NCBI GenBank assembly: GCA_900548285.1
Contig: URKE01000001.1
Span: forward strand, 21,274 to 85,273
Origin: an uncultured Eubacteriales bacterium
Lineage (GTDB): Bacteria; Bacillota; Clostridia; Christensenellales; Borkfalkiaceae
Length of the DNA: 64,000 nt
Direction: 5' to 3'
The position numbers and the translations under genes are program-made. This document shows positions 2,731 through 63,101 of the stretch, piece by piece (position 1 is the first letter of the stretch; the number at the start of each line of letters is the position of its first letter). Under the pieces are notes generated by a model. The model was not told where the DNA came from. It saw nothing but the letters and a program-made list of their open reading frames with translations, and ran no database searches.

Positions 2731-3172
2731 TGTAAAAATTCCTTTTTGTCTTGTTTTAGTCCCGCCCACCCCCGAAAAGAAGTTTTGCGCGGAACTTCAA
2801 CCGCCCCCTTTCGGGGCAAAACGGGAAGAACCCCGAAACGGTTTTTATCCGAATCGGGGAAAACGGGCGGCGATTGATTGTCGCCGATTTAGTAAAAATC
2901 GCGACGAAACAGCCCTTAATATACAGGCTAAGTGGCATTTTTTGCGAAAAATCGCGAAATCGGACTTATGCTTGATGTCAAGGGTCGGGCGAAAATCGGG
3001 AGTTTTCCCGTTTTCTCCCCGATTCCCCGATTTTGTTTCGGGGAGAATATGATATACTGAAAGAGTATATGCAAAACCCCGACTTTGCGGATATGCGAAA
3101 AGTCGGGGTGATATGGATAAACCTCTGAACGTTCAGGGCTTCGGTGTAGACGACAAGGGCGGATAAACAGCA

Positions 3173-4681
3173 TTAAAGAGCATAGAAAAAACGCGTCTGT
3201 TCCTGAAATTCAGGAACGGACGCGCCTCGTGTTGGTGACCCCTTTGAAGTTAAAGACGAACTATTTACTTGTTCAAACGTAACGGTTTTGCTTTGTCCTT
3301 TATAATTGAAGGTGATAAGAAAGCGGTCGTCGTAAAGGAAAATGCTGTTCACGAAACCGTCAATCAGTTGTTGTTTTCCTTCTTGCGAAGATAAATCGAG
3401 TTTGCGATAACTATACAAGGCAAATTGAATCTGTTCTTTCGTTAGTACGGGGTGATTGATTTGCGTTTTAAATAATTCCACCTCGAGATTGCTTTTTTGT
3501 TCTTCCAAATCGTCGAGCAGTTTTTTCGTTGTCGAAGAAAACACGCCCTGAGCAATTGCTTCGGCAAGGTTATTTAATTTCTTTTCGACTTCCGACAGTT
3601 GATTTTTCACGACCGCTACCGCCGCATTTTCTTCCGTCTGCATTTCATATATGCGGTCGGAAAGTTCTTCGATAACCTCATCGTTGGAAATCAGGGAAAG
3701 GATTTCTTCGATAACCAAATCTTCTATCCAATCTTTTTTTACGGCTTTTTTATCGCATTTATGCTTTTTTGCCTGATTGCACTTATAATAACGGTATTTC
3801 GATTGCGTATGACTCGTACCGATTTCACCGACCATCATTGCGCCGCATTTACCGCAAAATAACCGAGTAGTCAGCAGATAATCGTCCTCGCTTCTGTGCA
3901 TTGCGGGGGCTTTTTTGTTTTTTTTAAGCCTTTGCTGGACGTCCTCGAATGCATCTTTATCAATAATCGCGGGAATAGCGTCGGGGAGAAGGATATCGCC
4001 GAATTTATATTCGCCGATATATTTTCGGTTTGTAAGTATGCGAAATACCGAATTGTAATTCATATCGTAGCCGCGATTTTTTATTCCGCGGGCGTTCATC
4101 AACTTCGCAATGTCTTTTACGCGTTTTCCTTCAAGGTAAAGCGAATAAATTTCTTTTACGATAGGTGCGAGAGTTTCGTCTATTTGATATTTATCGTCGC
4201 CGTCGATATAATAACCGAACGGGGCGCGGACGCCGTTTGCTTTGGCTTTTAACGCATTTTCGGTCATGCCGCGTCTGACTTTTACAGCAAGTTCGGCAGA
4301 GTAGTATTCGGCACAGCCCTCAAGCAGCGATTCAAGCAAAATTCCTTCCGGACTTTCGGATATAGCTTCCGTCGCCGAGATGACGCGCACGCCGTTCTTT
4401 TTTAATATTCGCTTATAATGAGCGGAATCGTAACGGTCGCGCGAAAATCTATCTAATTTCCACACAAGAACGATATCGAACAGATTTTTATAACTGTCCT
4501 TAATCATGTGCTGAAATTCGGGGCGGTGATCTGTTTTAGCAGAAAATGCGCGATCTATGTAATTGCCGATGACTTGCATGCCGTTATATTCGGCATACTG
4601 CATACACTCGCGAAGCTGACCTTCGATACTTGCTTCGTTCTGCTTGTCCGAACTAAACCGCGCATATATTACCGCTTTCAT
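3173..4681 (-). CDS. Large serine recombinase (resolvase/invertase catalytic domain + recombinase domain + zinc ribbon + coiled coil)
   Basis: N-terminus MKAVIYARFSSDKQ carries the catalytic Ser motif. CGKCG...CxxxxxHKC zinc ribbon. 502 aa. Confidence 0.9.
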   Translation of the reverse strand: MKAVIYARFSSDKQNEASIEGQLRECMQYAEYNGMQVIGNYIDRAFSAKTDHRPEFQHMIKDSYKNLFDIVLVWKLDRFSRDRYDSAHYKRILKKNGVRVISATEAISESPEGILLESLLEGCAEYYSAELAVKVRRGMTENALKAKANGVRAPFGYYIDGDDKYQIDETLAPIVKEIYSLYLEGKRVKDIAKLMNARGIKNRGYDMNYNSVFRILTNRKYIGEYKFGDILLPDAIPAIIDKDAFEDVQQRLKKNKKAPAMHRSEDDYLLTTRLFCGKCGAMMVGEIGTSHTQSKYRYYKCNQAKKHKCDKKAVKKDWIEDLVIEEILSLISNDEVIEELSDRIYEMQTEENAAVAVVKNQLSEVEKKLNNLAEAIAQGVFSSTTKKLLDDLEEQKSNLEVELFKTQINHPVLTKEQIQFALYSYRKLDLSSQEGKQQLIDGFVNSIFLYDDRFLITFNYKGQSKTVTFEQVNSSSLTSKGSPTRGASVPEFQEQTRFFYAL

Positions 4682-4740
4682 CGATATTCTCCTATATTAT
4701 TAACAATTCAAAACTTTGTATTAAGCGTTTGTATTGTATG

Positions 4741-5409
4741 TCATAAAATAATTGATAAAAGTAATGGAATAATTATAAGGCTAATAACGCTCCACCCTAA
4801 ACCTCTATATTTTTTTGCGTTATTTATTCCTATATCGATTTCAGTAATAGGGAAAAATTTTTTAACAAATATTTTTATAAACCAACCGATAAAAAACGGA
4901 ATTGGAATTAACGATGCCGAAAGAATCGTTTTGTCATTAAAAGAAACATCCGCTTTCCAAACCGATAAAAGAAAAGCTATTGCAATAACTAGACCGTAAA
5001 ATAAAGACGCGATCCAACTGTTGCAAAACACTCGCAAGAAACGCTTGTCTTCCGTTTTGTGAAGCCAATCACTAATATCTTTTTCTATTAAAGTGTGTTT
5101 ATCTTTTTCTGTATGACTAAATTTAATTTCATAAAAATCGTCAAAATTTTTTTCTATCGAATAACGCGACTCAAAGTCTTTATCTTGACCGGAAACTTCT
5201 ATCGTTTCTAGTTTTGCATTTTTAAAATCATAATTTTTAAATGTATCCATCGACAAGTCATCAATAATCAACCCGTTTTTATAAGAAACTTTGATTTTGT
5301 GTTCGCCGTAGTATTTTGATAACGTAGAAATAAGATCACATATGTTTTCCTTTGTTATCACAACGCCTATAAGTTTCAGTTTTTGCGAAAAAATTGGATT
5401 CATTGACAT
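4741..5409 (-). CDS. Hypothetical protein, soluble N-domain + 3 C-terminal TM helices, very AT-rich
   Basis: ORF of 222 aa with hydrophobic C-terminus. GC is far below the flanking sequence. No recognizable family. Confidence 0.5.
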   Translation of the reverse strand: MSMNPIFSQKLKLIGVVITKENICDLISTLSKYYGEHKIKVSYKNGLIIDDLSMDTFKNYDFKNAKLETIEVSGQDKDFESRYSIEKNFDDFYEIKFSHTEKDKHTLIEKDISDWLHKTEDKRFLRVFCNSWIASLFYGLVIAIAFLLSVWKADVSFNDKTILSASLIPIPFFIGWFIKIFVKKFFPITEIDIGINNAKKYRGLGWSVISLIIIPLLLSIIL

Positions 5410-11754: not shown

Positions 11755-11829
11755 TGGTGACCCCTACGGGATTCGAACCCATGATACCGCCGTGAAAGGG
11801 CGATGTCTTAACCGCTTGACCAAGGGGCC
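11755..11829 (-). tRNA. tRNA-Glu (anticodon TTC), CCA encoded
   Basis: Reverse complement GGCCCCTTGGTCAAGCGGTTAAGACATCGCCCTTTCACGGCGGTATCATGGGTTCGAATCCCGTAGGGGTCACCA folds as a cloverleaf with a GTTCGAATC T-loop. Confidence 0.85.
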
Positions 11830-11884
11830 TTATTCAGTTGTATATCGCAATGCGCTTTAAAAAAAAGAGCAGTTGTTATCATCT

Positions 11885-11960
11885 GGTAGCGGCGGTCAGA
11901 TTCGAACCAACGACCTGCCGGGTATGAACCGGCCGCTATAACCAACTAAGCTACGCCGCC
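11885..11960 (-). tRNA. tRNA-Met (CAT), elongator-type
   Basis: Reverse complement GGCGGCGTAGCTTAGTTGGTTATAGCGGCCGGTTCATACCCGGCAGGTCGTTGGTTCGAATCTGACCGCCGCTACCA. G1-U72 pair. Resembles Bacillus elongator tRNA-Met. tRNA-Ile2 (lysidine) identity not excluded. Confidence 0.75.
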
Positions 11961-12004
11961 ATAAAAATTCGTAAGCAAGCAAACATGTCGCTTGCTTACT
12001 ACAG

Positions 12005-12081
<77 letters not shown>

Positions 12082-20879: not shown

Positions 20880-21110
20880 TAACAGTAGAGATAGAGGCGC
20901 AGGGCTTAAAAGTAACCTCGTTCATAACCCGTCGAAGGGGAACGATGCGAAAGGAAGTCTTGCCGAAACCGTTGCGCGTTCGCACCGCGCGGCAGGTTGG
21001 GCGTCGATAAAACATATCGGCGACTGTCGCTTTTTGCGGAGGGCTATCGTGATATCAGCGGATTTTCCCGTGAGTATTGCTATGCGGCTCTACTCACGGG
21101 TTTTTATTTT
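20880..21110 (+). ncRNA. Lysine riboswitch (L-box) with terminator expression platform
   Basis: 5' AGAGATAGAGGCGC and 3' GGAGGGCTATCGTG match the L-box P1 and flanking consensus recalled from the B. subtilis lysC leader. Terminator cccgtgagt...actcacgggttttt sits just upstream of the RBS of an amino-acid ABC transporter. Confidence 0.6.
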
Positions 21111-21128: not shown

Positions 21129-22793
21129 ATGAAAAACAGACGCTCGATATTTTTAGTACTGATAAGCGTTTTTCTTATTTTTGCCTGCAGCGGTTGCGGC
21201 GGAAGAAATAACGCGAAACTCACTTACGTCGACCTTGTAAACAACGACACGGGGTTTGCCGCCACCGACGCGGACGTCGCCATAGCCATAGGGCTTAAGA
21301 AAGGCGACGCGTATAAAGACAAAATGAATCAGTTTCTCGATAAACTCACCGCCGAAAAGCAGGAAGAGATCATGGGCGGGATTATCGGGATTTTAAACGA
21401 CGAAACCGCGACTTTCACGCCGCGTTACGATTTTTCGTCCGTTACGGGCGGAGTTCTGAAAGTCGGAATGGAGTGCGCTTACGAACCGTATAACTGGACT
21501 CAGGACGACGACAGAAACGGCGCGCTCCCGATAAAAAACCTGAGCGGAAAATACGCCAACGGTTACGACGTTCAGATAGCCGCTATGGTCGCCGCTTCGA
21601 TGAATATGACAATCGAAATTTATCAATACGAGTGGGAGAGCCTTATCCCGGCGGTTCAGAGCGGAAAACTCGACGCTATCGTCGCGGGTATGAGCCCCAC
21701 GGAAGAGCGAAAAAAGGAAGTCGATTTCACCACGCCTTATTATCGTTCCACGCTCGTCGTTGTGACGAGAGAAGGTTCGGTTATCGCCGACGCGAAGAGT
21801 CTTGAGGAAATCGATAAAGAGGGGGTTAAAGTCGCGGGGCAACCGGGAACTTTCCACCTTTCCGCGCTTAAATCTCAGACGAGCAATCTTACCGTTATAG
21901 ACAGCCTTGCGAACTTCGTCGATATGAGAATCGCGCTCGAAGCGGGAACTATAGACGGTTACGTCGCCGAACGCCCCACCGCGAACGCCGTATGCAACGC
22001 AAAAAACGGCGAAGAAGAAGGTTTTTTCGTTTCGGTCGGAAACATTCTGAAAACGTATTGGAAAGACTTTCTGAAAGGTATAGGTTACACCCTTTCGATA
22101 GCGTTGATATCCACGGTCGCGGGGCTTTTAATCGGCTTGATTATAGGCATCGTGAGAACGATTCCGCGCTCGAAAAAGAAGTGGGTGGCGGTTATTCAGA
22201 AAGTCGTTGACGTGATATTGTCCGTTTATATCGAAGTGTTCAGAGGCACGCCGATGATGGTGCAGTCGATGGTTATTTACTGGGGTTACGCATTCGCTAC
22301 GGGCGGCAACACGCTCAATCTGTTTTTCTCTGCGCTCGTCATAGTTTCGATTAACACCGGCGCGTATATCGCGGAAATCGTGAGAGGCGGAATAATTTCG
22401 ATAGACAAAGGTCAGTTCGAAGGCGCGAGGGCGCTCGGAATGGGGCATGTTCAGACGATGATTCACGTTATTCTGCCGCAGGTTATAAGGAATATTCTCC
22501 CCGCCGTTTCCAACGAATTCGTCATCAATATCAAAGATACTTCCGTCCTTAACGTGATAGGCGTAACCGAACTTTATTTCTTCACGAACGTGATAGTGAA
22601 GCAGACGTATAAAAACTTCCCGATTTACTTCATATGTTGTGTGATTTACTTCATAATGACGTTCACGATCACGAGAATTTTAAGGCTCGTGGAAAAACTT
22701 CTCGCCGGTAAGGATAATTACACGATCTGCGGTTCGCAGACGGACGCCGCCGCGATGATAAAAGTTACCAAGGAGGGAATTCCCAATGACTGA
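21129..22793 (+). CDS. Polar amino acid ABC transporter, fused substrate-binding lipoprotein + permease (GlnP-like)
   Basis: Signal peptide plus Cys. Family-3 SBP domain. C-terminal permease with EAA-like loop. Confidence 0.85.
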
Positions 22794-25212: not shown

Positions 25213-25251
25213 ACATTACCGCGTTGCTTGATTTTTTTGAGTCTGATACGC

Positions 25252-25280
25252 TTGACAAGCTGCGGGATAAGTTGTAGAAT
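25252..25280 (+). promoter_or_regulatory. Promoter TTGACA-17-TAGAAT driving the riboswitch leader
   Basis: cttgacaagctgcgggataagttgtagaat. Confidence 0.55.
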
Positions 25281-25287
25281 GTAGCCG

Positions 25288-25692
25288 AAATCTTTGGGGC
25301 GGAGTGAAAATCTCCACCGGCAGTGAAGTTCCCTTTTTTCGGCGGCGGACAACGGTTTTGTCTGCAACCTAGCCACAGGTGATTGTGTTCGGACTCGGTC
25401 TTGCCATGTGTTTTTGACTAATACATCGTTGCGTTTCGCGTGTTATACGTATAGTATTAACGCGCTCACGCGCCTTGTCTTAGCCTAAAAACGCAAGGCA
25501 AGACTTGCTGGCAACCAAAACGGTCGGGCTGAAAACACGCGCTTTGACGGGGTGAAATTCCCCGACCGACGGTAAACCGTATGTCGGCAACGACGAATCT
25601 CTACGGTAAAGTCCGGATAAGAAAAGATTCATAAACTGCGAATCAAAGAAGTTTATTATTTGCCCCGTCCGATTTCGGACGGGGCTTTTCGG
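25288..25692 (+). ncRNA. FMN riboswitch (RFN element) of atypical length (~340 nt aptamer) plus terminator/sequester hairpin
   Basis: 5' half cttTGGGGCGGAGTGAAAATCTCCACCGGCAG. 3' half GGGGTGAAATTCCCCGACCGACGGTAAA...CGGTAAAGTCCGGATAAGAAAAGATTC. P1 pairs aatcttt with aaagatt. Expression-platform hairpin ccccgtccgatttcggacgggg sits immediately before RBS GGAGG. ECF S-component gene downstream, as for ribU. Confidence 0.55.
25391..25520 (+). repeat. Structured ~120 nt repeat element, copy 1 (inside riboswitch P3)
   Basis: Core GTTTTTGACTAATACATCGTT...TATTAAC...GTCTTAGCCTAAAAAC is ~85% identical to 62762-62885. Closed by stem gtcttgcc/ggcaagac. Confidence 0.7.
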
Positions 25693-25706
25693 AGGTTAAA
25701 ATTATC

Positions 25707-26387
25707 ATGGAGCAAAAAAAAGAGCAAACAACGGAACGGGAAGTCGCAGAAGAAAGCGTTGCCGACGAAAAAAAAGATGAAGCGGCAAGCGAAAAAAAAG
25801 AGGAAACGGCAAGCGAAAAAAAAGAGGAAACGGCAAGCGAAAAAAAATCAGGCCCGTTCACGGCGAAAAAACTTGCGCTTATAGCGGCATTCACCGCGCT
25901 CGCGTTCGGCGCGTCTTTTCTTGATTTTCCCGTTTTCCCCGCCGCGCCATTTTTAAAACTCGATTTTTCGTTCGCGATTATGCTTATCGGCGCTTACATG
26001 CTCGGCGCGTTGCCGGGCGAAATAACGGTTATCGCGTTCACGCTGTTCCGTCTGCCGCCCAGTCAGACGGGAATGATAGGCGAACTCGCAAACTTCATAA
26101 TGGCGCAGTTTTTCGTGGTTGTTCCGTCGCTTATTTACGAGCGTAAAAGAAAATTTTCGGTCGTGGCGATAACTCTCACCGCCGCAACTCTGATTATTTC
26201 CGCGGTGTCGCTTCTCATAAACAGATATCTCCTTTTTCCGTTTTATATGCAGGACGGAGCGGCGGCTTTTTTTGCCGACGTGTGGTATCTGATCATTCTT
26301 TTCAACTTGATAAAAGGCGCGTCAAACGCCGTCATAACCGTGTTATTATATAAAAGACTGAAAAAAATACTTCACAAATTCCTGTAA
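25707..26387 (+). CDS. ECF transporter S component (RibU-like riboflavin importer candidate) with charged repeat N-terminal extension
   Basis: Five to six TM helices typical of an ECF S-unit. Preceded by an FMN-type riboswitch. 24-bp tandem repeats encode EKKEETAS x3. Confidence 0.65.
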   Translation: MEQKKEQTTEREVAEESVADEKKDEAASEKKEETASEKKEETASEKKSGPFTAKKLALIAAFTALAFGASFLDFPVFPAAPFLKLDFSFAIMLIGAYMLGALPGEITVIAFTLFRLPPSQTGMIGELANFIMAQFFVVVPSLIYERKRKFSVVAITLTAATLIISAVSLLINRYLLFPFYMQDGAAAFFADVWYLIILFNLIKGASNAVITVLLYKRLKKILHKFL

Positions 26388-32570: not shown

Positions 32571-33230
32571 ATGTTTGTCGTGATATTAAGCGAAAAAAAT
32601 ACGAGCGGCGTTTACGTTGCTTTTGAAAACGGAATTCCGAGCGGTTTTTCGGGGTATGATTTTTTTGAGATCGCAGATTGTTCGCCCGATTGTGCGGAGG
32701 CGTTTGCCGCAAGCGAAAAAATATACGATGAGGTTTATCCGCCGCAAAGAGCGGAAGAGATAGAAAAAACGGGGAGCGAAAAGGTAAGGCAGGAAAAACT
32801 CGCCGTGTGGAAACTTCTGTTTGTCGCCATAGAGAGAAAATTCGGTTATAAGCCCGAAGAATTGAAGTTTTCAAAAACGGAAAACGGGAAGTGGATTTGC
32901 GATAAATTATGGTTTTCGCTCAGTCATTCTCACGGCGCGTCGGCGGTGATCGTGTCCGACAAACCTTGCGGGATAGACGTTGAATATAAGGTCGATTTTT
33001 TAAAAAAGTCCGCCGATAAGTCGTTTATCGAGGCTTTTTTGAATCGAATAGGCGAATCGGCGAGCGATTTCGGGACGATTTCCGCCGAAGAGATTTTGTC
33101 GCTCTGGACAAAAAAGGAAAGCCTTTATAAAATGACGGGCGAGGGGGTTTTTTCACCGAAAAAAATAACGCCGGGAAACGAAACGAAAAGTTTCGTCGTC
33201 GGCGATTACGTGTTCTCCGTCACGGAGTAA
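32571..33230 (+). CDS. 4'-phosphopantetheinyl transferase (Sfp/AcpT-type)
   Basis: CGIDVE and WTKKESLYK motifs. Confidence 0.7.
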   Translation: MFVVILSEKNTSGVYVAFENGIPSGFSGYDFFEIADCSPDCAEAFAASEKIYDEVYPPQRAEEIEKTGSEKVRQEKLAVWKLLFVAIERKFGYKPEELKFSKTENGKWICDKLWFSLSHSHGASAVIVSDKPCGIDVEYKVDFLKKSADKSFIEAFLNRIGESASDFGTISAEEILSLWTKKESLYKMTGEGVFSPKKITPGNETKSFVVGDYVFSVTE

Positions 33231-33245
33231 GTTAATGAAAAATCA

Positions 33246-33507
33246 TAGGGATTCCATTCGTCATCACTAATTACCGAAAAGGCGTCTTTTTCGCCATTTT
33301 CCGCGACCGTTCGGGCGCAGTACGTCAAGTACAGCAACCCTCACGCTCGCAAAAAATCATCAAAAAATGCGCTCTTTTCGGTGCGAAGCATTTTTGCGGA
33401 TGAGAAACCGACCGCATCGCGGCTCGTTTAGGCAAGGCATCCGCATAAATCGGTTTATCACCGCAAAAATAGTTAGTGATAACGAATGGAATCCCTACCG
33501 AAAAAAA
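33246..33507. mobile_element. MITE-like element: ~260 bp flanked by 25-nt terminal inverted repeats TAGGGATTCCATTCGTYATCACTAA
   Basis: TIRs at 33246-33270 (+) and 33483-33507 (-). A third solo copy at 23537. No coding capacity. Confidence 0.5.
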
Positions 33508-33547: not shown

Positions 33548-33820
33548 TTACGCTTCCTCTTTTGCGAGTTCGGTTTTGTAGGCTTCCATAATAGCCTTCA
33601 GCATTTCGGCGCGCGCTTCGTTGTTTATGGGGTGAACGATATCCTTATATTCGCCCTTGCTGTTCTTTTTTGCCGGCATGGATACGAAATATCCGTCGTT
33701 GCCGTCGATGATTTTAATGTCGTGAATCGCAATACATTCGTCGATGGTTACGGACGCGACCGCCCTGAGTTTTGAATCGTCTTTCGCGACGAGTCTGATT
33801 CTTACGTCTGTGATGTTCAT
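33548..33820 (-). CDS. spoVG: Septation protein SpoVG
   Basis: MNITDVRIRLV...ASVTIDECIAIHDIKIIDG closely matches B. subtilis SpoVG. Confidence 0.9.
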   Translation of the reverse strand: MNITDVRIRLVAKDDSKLRAVASVTIDECIAIHDIKIIDGNDGYFVSMPAKKNSKGEYKDIVHPINNEARAEMLKAIMEAYKTELAKEEA

Positions 33821-62183: not shown

Positions 62184-62678
62184 TTATTTGTCGGTTTTAA
62201 CGTCTATAGGCATGCCGCAATAAGGGCATGTCGGGTTGGCTTCGTCGGAAAAATAATCGACCGGAGCGCCGCAACTCGGGCATTTCGCGCGGAGCGCGGT
62301 TCTGGCGGCTTTGGCGTTGTTGTTGTAAAACAACTTTTCGCCGTCGAACAACAAACCCGTTATATATCTTTTTTCGATTGCCGTCCGGATATCGTTTCTG
62401 ACGATTTCTTCGTTCTTACCGGTCTGAACGGCGATGTCCTTAACGCTATAAATATGTTCGGACATAACGCATTGAACGGTGTGATTCAGCGATACCGCCG
62501 AGCCGTAAAGGGAAAAGATAATCGGGCAAGCGTAAAAATCGAACGCGGTGAAAACGATTCCCATAACGAGAATAAGCGTGTTTTTCCCCGCGCCGATAAT
62601 AATCATCGGTATGCCGCCGACCAGAAGGATGGCGGAAAGTATTCCAAAAAACAATAACGTACGGATTTTCTTTTTCAT
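62184..62678 (-). CDS. Membrane protein with C-terminal zinc-ribbon (CPSCG...CPYCG)
   Basis: N-terminal signal/TM, 2 TM helices, C-terminal double CxxC. Confidence 0.5.
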   Translation of the reverse strand: MKKKIRTLLFFGILSAILLVGGIPMIIIGAGKNTLILVMGIVFTAFDFYACPIIFSLYGSAVSLNHTVQCVMSEHIYSVKDIAVQTGKNEEIVRNDIRTAIEKRYITGLLFDGEKLFYNNNAKAARTALRAKCPSCGAPVDYFSDEANPTCPYCGMPIDVKTDK

Positions 62679-62761
62679 AGTTGATATTATATACCGAAAT
62701 GTTTTTTATGTCAACCATTATTCTTTGATTGCATGCCAGACAAGAATAATACGAACCGTGG

Positions 62762-62885
62762 TCTGACGGCGAGTTTTTGACTAATACGTCGTTACGCTCG
62801 CGGCTTATACGTCAAGTATTAACCCGTTCGCGTGCCTCGTCTTAGCCTAAAAACTCACCGTCAGACTCGCAACCGACCAAAGCGC
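62762..62885 (+). repeat. Structured ~120 nt repeat element, copy 2 (intergenic)
   Basis: Core GTTTTTGACTAATACGTCGTT...TATTAAC...GTCTTAGCCTAAAAAC closed by stem gtctgacggcgag/ctcaccgtcagac. Outer inverted repeat tgccagacaag (62746) and cttgtctggca (62999). Confidence 0.7.
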
Positions 62886-63101
62886 CGATATTTTCGATGA
62901 TTTTTGACAAAGGCGAACGCAGACGTACTTGCCGTACTTCAAGCGAGAATTTGGCAAAAAGTGCGAAAATTGCGGCGTTTTGGCAAGGTTCGTTTTAATC
63001 TTGTCTGGCATAGTCGCGGCATAAAAAATTATAAAGAGAAAACCTGCCGTTAAACAACTTATAGACGACTTTTTGCGGATTGATTATAAAAAATCTTCTG
63101 C

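Follow-up and report, generated by a model that had tools for sequence, protein, structure and literature searches.

RUP (repeat unit of pneumococcus) and Correia/NEMIS are bacterial MITEs attributed to IS630-type mobilisation. They are short, roughly 100-155 bp, and non-coding, possess terminal inverted repeats and a flanking duplication of an A/T dinucleotide, occur in tens of copies per genome, mostly between genes and in either orientation, and form stable hairpins if transcribed. The MITE bcr1 of the Bacillus cereus group is ~155 bp long, duplicates TTTAT, carries compensatory base changes and is documented to be transcribed. A review (PMC3184786) cites bcr1. In pneumococcus, a BOX element located between the two T-box riboswitches upstream of the trp operon is transcribed along with the leader and folds independently as a domain (Croucher et al. 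2011, PMC3049150). A recent review mentions relations between riboswitches and MITEs only as a possibility (PMC10969869).

The window analysed here is a stretch of DNA of 64,000 nucleotides, which includes the leader of a riboflavin-transporter gene with extra sequence inside its FMN riboswitch (Table 1). This extra sequence corresponds to the left half of a MITE, a small mobile DNA element of 277 bp that codes for nothing. The element is of an ordinary kind found at an unusual site, an FMN riboswitch aptamer, and it represents a new MITE family of uncultured gut Clostridia, of the same type as known bacterial MITEs; no description of a 277-bp two-hairpin MITE family was found in the literature. 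It is highly probable that the MITE landed in the P3 loop, that a repeat-mediated deletion then took strands of the aptamer and that the present leader is a decayed riboswitch.

The window MITE resembles RUP and Correia/NEMIS in being short and non-coding, in its terminal inverted repeats and A/T dinucleotide flanks, in copy number, in its mostly intergenic position in either orientation and in its ability to form stable hairpins if transcribed. It differs from them in its greater length, 277 bp, in its two long internal palindromes, in an interior conserved across subfamilies with diverged termini, in the AT flanks of one subfamily and in its host, a clade of uncultured gut Clostridia, and no cognate IS was found in ~8 kb around each copy or in the window. 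Like bcr1, it is a Firmicute MITE whose stable secondary structure is kept through compensatory substitutions, but the two sequences are unrelated. The BOX element of the trp leader, also a dispersed structured repeat, is the nearest precedent for such a repeat inside a riboswitch leader. However, the two riboswitches on either side of BOX are complete and still regulate, whereas the window MITE lies inside an aptamer helix, in the loop of P3, and strands of that aptamer were later deleted. As to the riboswitch itself, the leader agrees with RF00050 in P1, P2, P5, P6, the conserved junctions, the riboflavin ECF S component downstream and a terminator-type platform. It departs from RF00050 in having neither the 3' strand of P3 nor the 5' strand of P4, and its intact relatives possess unusually long P3, P4 and P6 inserts.

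Table 1. Features of the riboflavin-transporter leader and of the MITE copies in the window.
Feature	Positions	Strand	Basis or remark
Intergenic region preceding the ECF-transporter S component gene	25213-25706		
Sigma-70-type promoter of the riboflavin-transporter leader, TTGACA-17-TAGAAT	25252-25280	+	11/12 matches
Kept 5' aptamer part	25288-25323	+	partial RF00050 match; same residues in L122/L123 full-length alignments
P1 5' strand AAATCTTT	25288-25295	+	pairs with P1 3' strand
J1/2 GGGGC, between P1 and P2	within 25288-25323	+	
P2 hairpin, GGNGTGAAAWTCYCC type	25301-25315	+	
J2/3 and P3 5' strand, ACCGGCAG	25316-25323	+	
Native lineage-specific P3 loop upstream of the insertion point	25324-25369	+	alignment with L008-L013
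Truncated MITE, subfamily II	25370-25522	+	nhmmer, family profile positions 2-151 of 277, E 3.5e-41
Flanking TA	25370-25371	+	
Left terminal inverted repeat GCCACAGGTGATTGTGTTCGGAC	25372-25394	+	
Hairpin A	25397-25505	+	
Inter-hairpin linker, up to deletion junction CAAAACG	junction 25516-25522	+	alignment
Kept 3' aptamer part	25523-25629	+	partial RF00050 match 25540-25628; mapping after L122/L123
Orphan P4 3' strands GTCGGGC and CGCGCT	CGCGCT at 25538-25543	+	
P5 hairpin, GGNGTGAAAWTCYCC type	25548-25564	+	
J5/6 ACCGAC	25565-25570	+	ACCGAC-GGTAAA runs from 25565
P6 with lineage-specific 34-nt insert	25571-25622	+	
P1 3' strand AAAGATT	25623-25629	+	
Expression platform: GC-rich hairpin GCCCCGTCCGATTTCGGACGGGGC and TTTT, then RBS GGAGG	25662-25695	+	sequence
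ECF transporter S component (RibU-like), regulated gene	25707-26387	+	PF12822, E 2e-16
Third, related MITE, 252 bp, 28-nt terminal repeats TAGGGATTCCATTCGTCATCACTAATTA, TA at both ends	33246-33497	.	inverted repeat 93% complementary
Complete MITE, subfamily I, 277 bp with AT on each side	62732-63012	+	nhmmer positions 1-277, E 4e-91
Left terminal repeat of the complete MITE	62734-62757		
Hairpin A of the complete MITE	62760-62867		
Hairpin B of the complete MITE	62877-62983		
Right terminal repeat of the complete MITE	end 63010		

An earlier note on this DNA, made from the sequence alone, had recognised RFN hallmarks in the leader of the S-component gene. These are confirmed: the two GGNGTGAAAWTCYCC hairpins, ACCGGCAG and ACCGAC-GGTAAA are present, the strands of P1 pair, and a terminator-type hairpin stands next to the RBS. 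P1, P2, P5, P6 and the conserved junction nucleotides are all found upstream of a riboflavin gene. At the gathering threshold Rfam revealed no FMN riboswitch in the window leader (the RF00050 gathering score is 66.2), so that a six-helix aptamer above that score is absent. A permissive search gave two partial RF00050 matches, one of 18 bits at 25286-25360, spanning the 5' strand of P1, P2 and J2/3, and one of 30 bits at 25540-25628, spanning the GGGGTGAAATTCCCC hairpin, P6 and the 3' strand of P1.

End-to-end RF00050 matches were obtained in more distant transporter homologues, with 73 bits for the leaders L122 and L123 and 64.6 bits for L120, and these alignments fix the 3' strand of P3 as AAGTCTGCGAG. 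In the full-length alignments the P3 3' strand stands as AAGUCUGCGAG and P4 follows it, P5 is CGGGGUGAAAUUCCCCG, and an 18-nt insert is found in P6. All 10 related leaders (L008-L013 and L120-L123) possess the strand AAGTCTGCGAG, which was not found in the window leader even when 2 mismatches were allowed; the same ten possess the P4 5' strand AGCGCG, and this too is lacking in the window leader. The idea of a 340-nt aptamer carrying an insertion, put forward in the earlier note, fails on these two missing strands. The closer relatives, L008-L013, contain the same aptamer parts with longer P3, P4 and P6 inserts, and because of these long inserts Rfam aligns only fragments in them. Most of the intact relatives score below the gathering score.

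The states of the locus can be read from the same relatives. About 200 nt of extra sequence stand among the kept riboswitch parts, and the earlier note was right that the foreign sequence entered at P3. The leader L008 is the empty site for the riboswitch copy, although it could represent a precise excision rather than a site that was never occupied. Footprints usually remain after excision of the IS630/Tc1 type, whereas an exact empty site speaks for an allele that was never occupied. In L009 and L010 a full-length MITE occupies the same site in the P3 loop, and the L009 aptamer is otherwise intact; L011 and L012 retain a 42-nt MITE remnant consisting of the left 7 nt and the right arm. In the window, the left 151 nt of the MITE are joined straight to the interior of P4. 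The junction contains a single CAAAACG, whereas L009-like sequence contains two at a distance of 183 nt, the first in the linker of the MITE and the second within P4, and the leader is 494 nt long in the window versus 677 nt in L009. According to the alignment, the 183 nt lost comprise hairpin B, the right terminal repeat, the second TA, the P3 3' strand and the P4 5' strand. The truncation of the window copy, and the loss of part of the aptamer with it, had not been remarked on in the earlier note.

These states give the following sequence of events. One MITE copy inserted in the variable loop of P3, in the FMN riboswitch of the gene for the riboflavin-transporter S component. Pairing between its ends allows the complete MITE to fold into a closed domain that prolongs P3 and leaves the aptamer intact, and this full-MITE, intact-aptamer state persists in the relative L009. 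In the lineage of the window, a deletion of 183 nt between the two 7-nt CAAAACG direct repeats followed, after which the six-helix FMN pocket could most likely no longer form, leaving a decayed riboswitch. The identical 494-nt leader was found on 7 of 7 metagenome contigs that encode the identical transporter protein; these seven identical leaders are uninformative on strain variation at the riboswitch copy.

Predicted folds are consistent with this reading. P2 to P6 all appear in the MFE folds of L008, L009 and L011, and the MITE of L009 forms a closed domain atop P3. In contrast, the MFE fold of the window leader is devoid of P3, P4, P5 and P6: P5 is lost to pairing of the orphan strand GGUCGGG with CCCGACC, and P6 to pairing of UUCGGACU with AGUCCGGA.

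It is unlikely that, with the MITE as described, the window riboswitch still senses FMN through a remodelled 340-nt aptamer. In such an aptamer GTCTGCAA (25360-25367) would act as a substitute 3' strand of P3, and hairpin A with neighbouring sequence would replace P4. GCAG (25320-25323) can indeed pair with CUGC (25362-25365), and GTCTGCAACC (25360-25369), a part of the native P3 loop that resembles the lost P3 3' strand, could in principle replace it. Moreover, P1, P2, J2/3, P5, J5/6 and P6 are all kept and identical to those of the relatives, and this allele is the only one in seven samples. However, a recent deletion explains the identity of the kept parts equally well, J3/4 and the P4 5' strand are gone, and the two halves reach only the 18 and 30 bits given above. 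Furthermore, the predicted pairing of the orphan GGTCGGG with CCCGACC and of TTCGGACT with AGTCCGGA would abolish P5 and P6.

The loss of strands and the predicted misfolding together suggest that the window aptamer is most likely dead and no longer binds FMN. The transcription start is predicted just 5' of P1, and the GC-rich hairpin with its U tract (25662-25689) is followed by GGAGG and ATG; tsaE and then tsaB are located downstream of the S component gene. The hairpin GCCCCGTCCGATTTCGGACGGGGC with TTTT is a probable terminator and is predicted in all leaders compared; with no more than 4 T, it escaped the consensus terminator scan. The 5' strand of P5, GACGGGG, is complementary to CCCCGTC in the terminator 5' arm and is a candidate anti-terminator. 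A permanently unfolded aptamer would leave this strand free to pair with the terminator 5' arm, which would favour read-through, so the transporter gene is probably expressed constitutively.

The family to which the inserted element belongs was delimited by a pattern scan of one genome per bacterial species with the exact two-block pattern TTGACTAATAC, 40-66 nt, TTAGCCTAAAA. Its 106 matching stretches are spread over 22 species-level assemblies, a single assembly having up to 15, and nearly all 22 assemblies are labelled uncultured gut Clostridia or Clostridiales. A profile search yielded 150 non-overlapping matches in 786 kb of loci. As was found by the alignment of 82 non-redundant copies with 200-320 nt of flank, the element has sharp edges, conservation starting at TGCCAGACAAGAATAATACGAACC and stopping at its reverse complement. 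Copy length is 270-280 bp, mostly 276-278 bp, in 65-66 of the 82 aligned copies. Between the two terminal inverted repeats lie hairpins A and B, of ~110 nt each and in this order, joined by a 10-nt linker; hairpin A is the module of the earlier note. Both hairpins are imperfect palindromes, and the terminal inverted repeats measure 24-28 bp with a within-copy complementarity of 0.92. The element has no coding capacity, its sole ORF being a spurious one of 54 aa across hairpin B, and full copies are mostly intergenic (60 of 78).

Two main subfamilies are distinguished by their termini, TGCCAGAC... in subfamily I, which includes the copy at 62.7 kb, and AGCCACAGGTG... in subfamily II, which includes the riboswitch copy. 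Elements with a third terminal-repeat type (GCCGAGAAGAACC...) are nested in some copies, at a TA that separates hairpin A from hairpin B. Variation within the element is greatest in the terminal repeats, and the interior is conserved across the subfamilies. MITEs usually show the opposite of variable ends with a conserved interior. A MITE copy forms the end of several metagenome contigs.

Occupied and empty sites could be compared for both subfamilies. Around the GCC...GGC core, subfamily II has TA on the left in 17 of 17 copies and on the right in 16 of 17, and subfamily I has AT on the left in 49 of 49 and on the right in 48 of 49; read one base further out, subfamily I shows TA in only 65-76%. 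The empty site GCC-TA-TGG of L008 corresponds to ACC-TA-(278-bp element)-TA-TGG in L009. Similarly, the conspecific contig L132, whose neighbouring protein is identical, reads GCGACT-AT-GCAATC where the window has AT-(element)-AT. Thus a TA at one locus and an AT at the other are found once in the empty site and on both sides of the element in the occupied one. Since the 2-bp flank is palindromic, its duplication is indistinguishable from a blunt insertion in which the element has one more nucleotide at either end. The element is mobile, non-coding and bounded by terminal repeats, and it duplicates or splits an A/T dinucleotide. Its size (below ~500 bp), its lack of coding capacity, its terminal inverted repeats and its dispersal in copies with unrelated flanks are those of a MITE, and the sharp ends, the terminal repeats, the flanking duplication, the empty sites and the nested copies identify it as one. 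A MITE with structured ends was among the candidates named in the earlier note, and it is this candidate that the terminal inverted repeats, 2-bp flanking duplications and empty sites support.

Mobilisation would most likely proceed by cut-and-paste, through a DDE transposase of the IS630/Tc1-mariner type supplied in trans. Subfamily I has AT flanks, whereas IS630 would be expected to give TA. In ~8 kb around each copy and within the window, no transposase flanked by matching terminal repeats was detected, and an inverted-repeat scan of the window revealed no IS. Among pairs of terminal repeats of the four types lying >700 bp apart in the 786 kb of loci, only nested MITEs were found, and no pairs 0.9-3 kb apart surround a transposase in the examined loci or the window. 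The ORFs downstream of variant right ends, considered as a possible autonomous partner, proved to be ordinary genes. A link with phages was also rejected: seven faecal-virome records named 'Bacteriophage sp.' contain the element, and the two inspected are bacterial chromosome fragments carrying ClpC, a McsB-like kinase, PGI, GluRS and permeases. No plasmid match to the element was found.

At 62.7 kb the sister subfamily is represented by a complete copy that inserted independently and has its conspecific empty site in L132. Both genes flanking this copy are on the minus strand, and it stands 19 nt upstream of the -35 box in the promoter of a neighbouring gene (62714-62686, 12/12), which lies on the strand opposite to the MITE. 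Within this copy, neither a promoter nor a terminator was detected on the plus strand, and the minus strand has only weak terminator-like matches. Its 273-nt unit folds with an MFE z-score of -8.7 relative to shuffled sequence. The repeat between the two sites, noticed before at about 85% identity, is real, 25398-25504 recurring at 62761-62866, with the identity corrected to 79% (blastn, 113 nt, E 1e-21). The outer inverted repeat reported for the second copy is likewise present, 62733-62760 against 62984-63011, 28 nt with 89% complementarity. The window holds more than the two copies previously counted, because a third element has an interior related to hairpin B (nhmmer match 33272-33390, E 1e-10); its ends are of a fourth terminal-repeat type. 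An inverted repeat at 2813-3019 was considered as a further MITE and was not convincing.

The closing helices of the two module copies differ in sequence yet stay complementary, as the earlier note had stated, and its conclusion was that a conserved RNA structure is implied. The compensatory changes are real: in the alignment of 65 copies, 37 of 89 predicted pairs are formed by at least two Watson-Crick types, and the arms of the terminal repeats are more complementary within a copy (0.916) than between different copies (0.847). By themselves, these changes do not imply a functional RNA; a DNA palindrome that is imperfect and whose subfamilies have diverged shows them as well. Each module copy is itself an imperfect palindrome. 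Among established mutational mechanisms, template-switch correction of quasi-palindromes gives compensatory changes in DNA hairpins without RNA selection. Since such concerted change of the arms is expected for DNA quasi-palindromes, the structure is read as a property of a fold-back DNA element.

Neither a consistent orientation to transcription nor a strand-specific structure, as a functional RNA in general would have, is seen. Relative to the flanking genes, 20 copies are co-oriented and 19 anti-oriented, 9 lie between divergent and 7 between convergent genes, and the alifold energies of the plus and minus strands are -85.58 and -85.61. The mostly intergenic position of full copies and the place of the copy at 62.7 kb, upstream of its neighbour's promoter and on the other strand, likewise argue against a functional RNA. 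The two blocks of hairpin A that had been regarded as conserved and single-stranded are largely paired with each other in the consensus fold, and their invariance follows from the search pattern used to find the copies. A first count of G:U pairs, 431 versus 85, seemed to speak for strand-specific RNA selection; the excess stems largely from folding of the plus strand only and from a few inherited positions, and a symmetric count reduces it to 449 versus 259, with equal alifold energies for the two strands. Rfam, searched with both copies at the gathering threshold and at E up to 10, returned no family beyond the partial FMN matches; the second copy gave only chance-level miRNA matches at E above 1 and the module of the first copy gave none, so the module does not correspond to an already named RNA family. 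With this result, the terminal repeats, flanking duplications and empty sites, the unbiased orientation and the equal folding of both strands, the earlier candidates of a self-folding mobile RNA or ribozyme and of a novel sRNA domain are not upheld. The module is neither a riboswitch domain nor a ribozyme.

It is quite improbable that the two-hairpin interior is a functional structured nucleic acid, RNA or single-stranded DNA, which serves mobilisation or has been recruited by the host, and that the element is not a classical transposase-bound MITE. On such a reading, terminal pairing would count for more than terminal sequence. The reading is retained at low probability because the terminal repeats are so variable while subfamilies have their interior in common; this interior also recurs in related MITEs that possess other termini. 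The pairs of two or more Watson-Crick types and the covariation of the terminal repeats between and within subfamilies would also fit it, as would the symmetric count of mismatches, 449 G:T versus 259 A:C, and the plus strand, which folds better by ~6 kcal/mol in 47 of 65 copies. Against it stand the lack of orientation bias, the equal alifold energies of the two strands, the origin of the hairpin A block conservation in the search pattern, the compensatory changes expected from template switching without RNA selection and the lack of an Rfam family. In addition, the loops of hairpin B are less conserved than its stems, which is opposite to typical functional RNA. Very improbable as well is the broader view that the interior is a structure-dependent module, acting as a folded single-stranded intermediate or a guide-like RNA for mobilisation, or that hairpin A has been co-opted as a P3/P4 replacement in a functional riboswitch; its ground is the two-hairpin interior common to subfamilies with diverged yet complementary terminal repeats.

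IS200/IS605 elements have no terminal repeats; a fixed tetra- or pentanucleotide lies 5' of their insertion site, and no duplication results. A palindromic element of the REP/BIME or IS200/IS605 kind, mobilised in single-stranded DNA form through a Y1 (HUH) transposase, would agree with the long imperfect palindromes that dominate the MITE and with the absence of a DDE transposase in ~8 kb around each copy and in the window, but it is extremely unlikely in view of the 24-28 bp terminal inverted repeats, the 2-bp sequence present on both sides of occupied sites and once in empty ones, and the lack of a conserved flank beyond 2 nt.

Read as a MITE with its insertion in a riboswitch, the locus adds to the record an undescribed MITE superfamily of small-genome uncultured Clostridia of the human gut, characterised by two hairpins between terminal repeats of at least four types. 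Its copies are still polymorphic among conspecific strains, and metagenome assemblies are broken by them. Compensatory changes between palindromic repeat copies are not evidence of a functional RNA, and this should be borne in mind when such repeats are interpreted. The FMN riboswitches of the clade escape the Rfam gathering threshold because of their long P3, P4 and P6 inserts. Finally, one locus offers a natural series of four states, namely the empty site, the full 277-nt insertion in the P3 loop, the remnant left by internal deletion and the deletion that extends into the aptamer. This series illustrates how a riboswitch helix may absorb a self-closing mobile element and how the aptamer may then be lost by repeat-mediated deletion.

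The FMN riboswitches of this clade carry a P6 insert of 18-34 nt, which was found both in the leader of the ECF S-component gene of the window (25571-25604) and in the related S-component leaders L008-L013 and L120-L123. The insert contains a small covarying hairpin (GUCG-GCAA-CGAC versus GUCAGG-GACG-CCUGAC), and the P3 and P4 inserts are also long. Because of these inserts, the intact riboswitches of the clade are matched by Rfam either with 64.6-73 bits, below or barely at the gathering score, or as fragments only. The S-component homologues comprise 204-242 aa, and their length varies mostly in a Lys/Glu-rich repeat region; in the window, a tandem 24-nt repeat (25765-25845) in the N-terminus of the S component encodes such a segment (...EKKEETAS...).

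The window also contains a third MITE (33246-33497), which is flanked by TA on either side and lies in an intergenic region, where one gene ends at 33230 and another starts near 33548. Its terminal repeats differ from those of the 277-bp family, and its interior is akin to hairpin B of that family. In L058, L082 and L109, loci from other genomes or metagenomes, the 277-bp element itself hosts a further type of related MITE, of ~340 bp (GCCGAGAAGAACCCC...GGGGTTCTTCTCGGC, with TA at both ends; for example, L109 ~4620-4960), which is nested at a TA lying between the two hairpins, A and B. Besides, a full MITE copy in L058 is directly adjoined by a tiny remnant with two arms.

Features located in the window (positions are those of the window)
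Feature	Position	Strand	Details
Three clustered tRNA genes	11758-12081	minus	
Canonical lysine riboswitch	20884-21054		RF00168, 95 bits
Third MITE, 252 bp	33246-33497		28-nt terminal repeats TAGGGATTCCATTCGTCATCACTAATTA, 93% complementary
Sigma-70 consensus promoter	62686-62714	minus	12/12 match (TTGACA, 17 nt, TATAAT)

The lysine riboswitch is followed by an ABC transporter gene (21129-22793, a substrate-binding/permease fusion) and its ATPase. The sigma-70 promoter serves the gene of a small zinc-ribbon membrane protein (62184-62678) and is located 19 nt from the end of copy 2, the complete MITE of the 277-bp family.

The MITE was also detected in two human faecal virome records designated 'UNVERIFIED: Bacteriophage sp.' in GenBank, L136 (MT835788.1) and L137 (MT835522.1). 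Judging by their genes for ClpC, an arginine-kinase-like protein, PGI, GluRS and permeases, both look like fragments of a bacterial chromosome. A large serine recombinase is encoded at 1591-3447 of L136.

The same-species metagenome contigs L130, L131 and L133-L135 stop 190-330 nt upstream of the gene adjoining copy 2, at positions that fall inside the MITE. In scaffold L128, a run of N lies within the MITE and the upstream neighbour differs. Evidently, the MITE repeat breaks or mis-joins metagenome assemblies.
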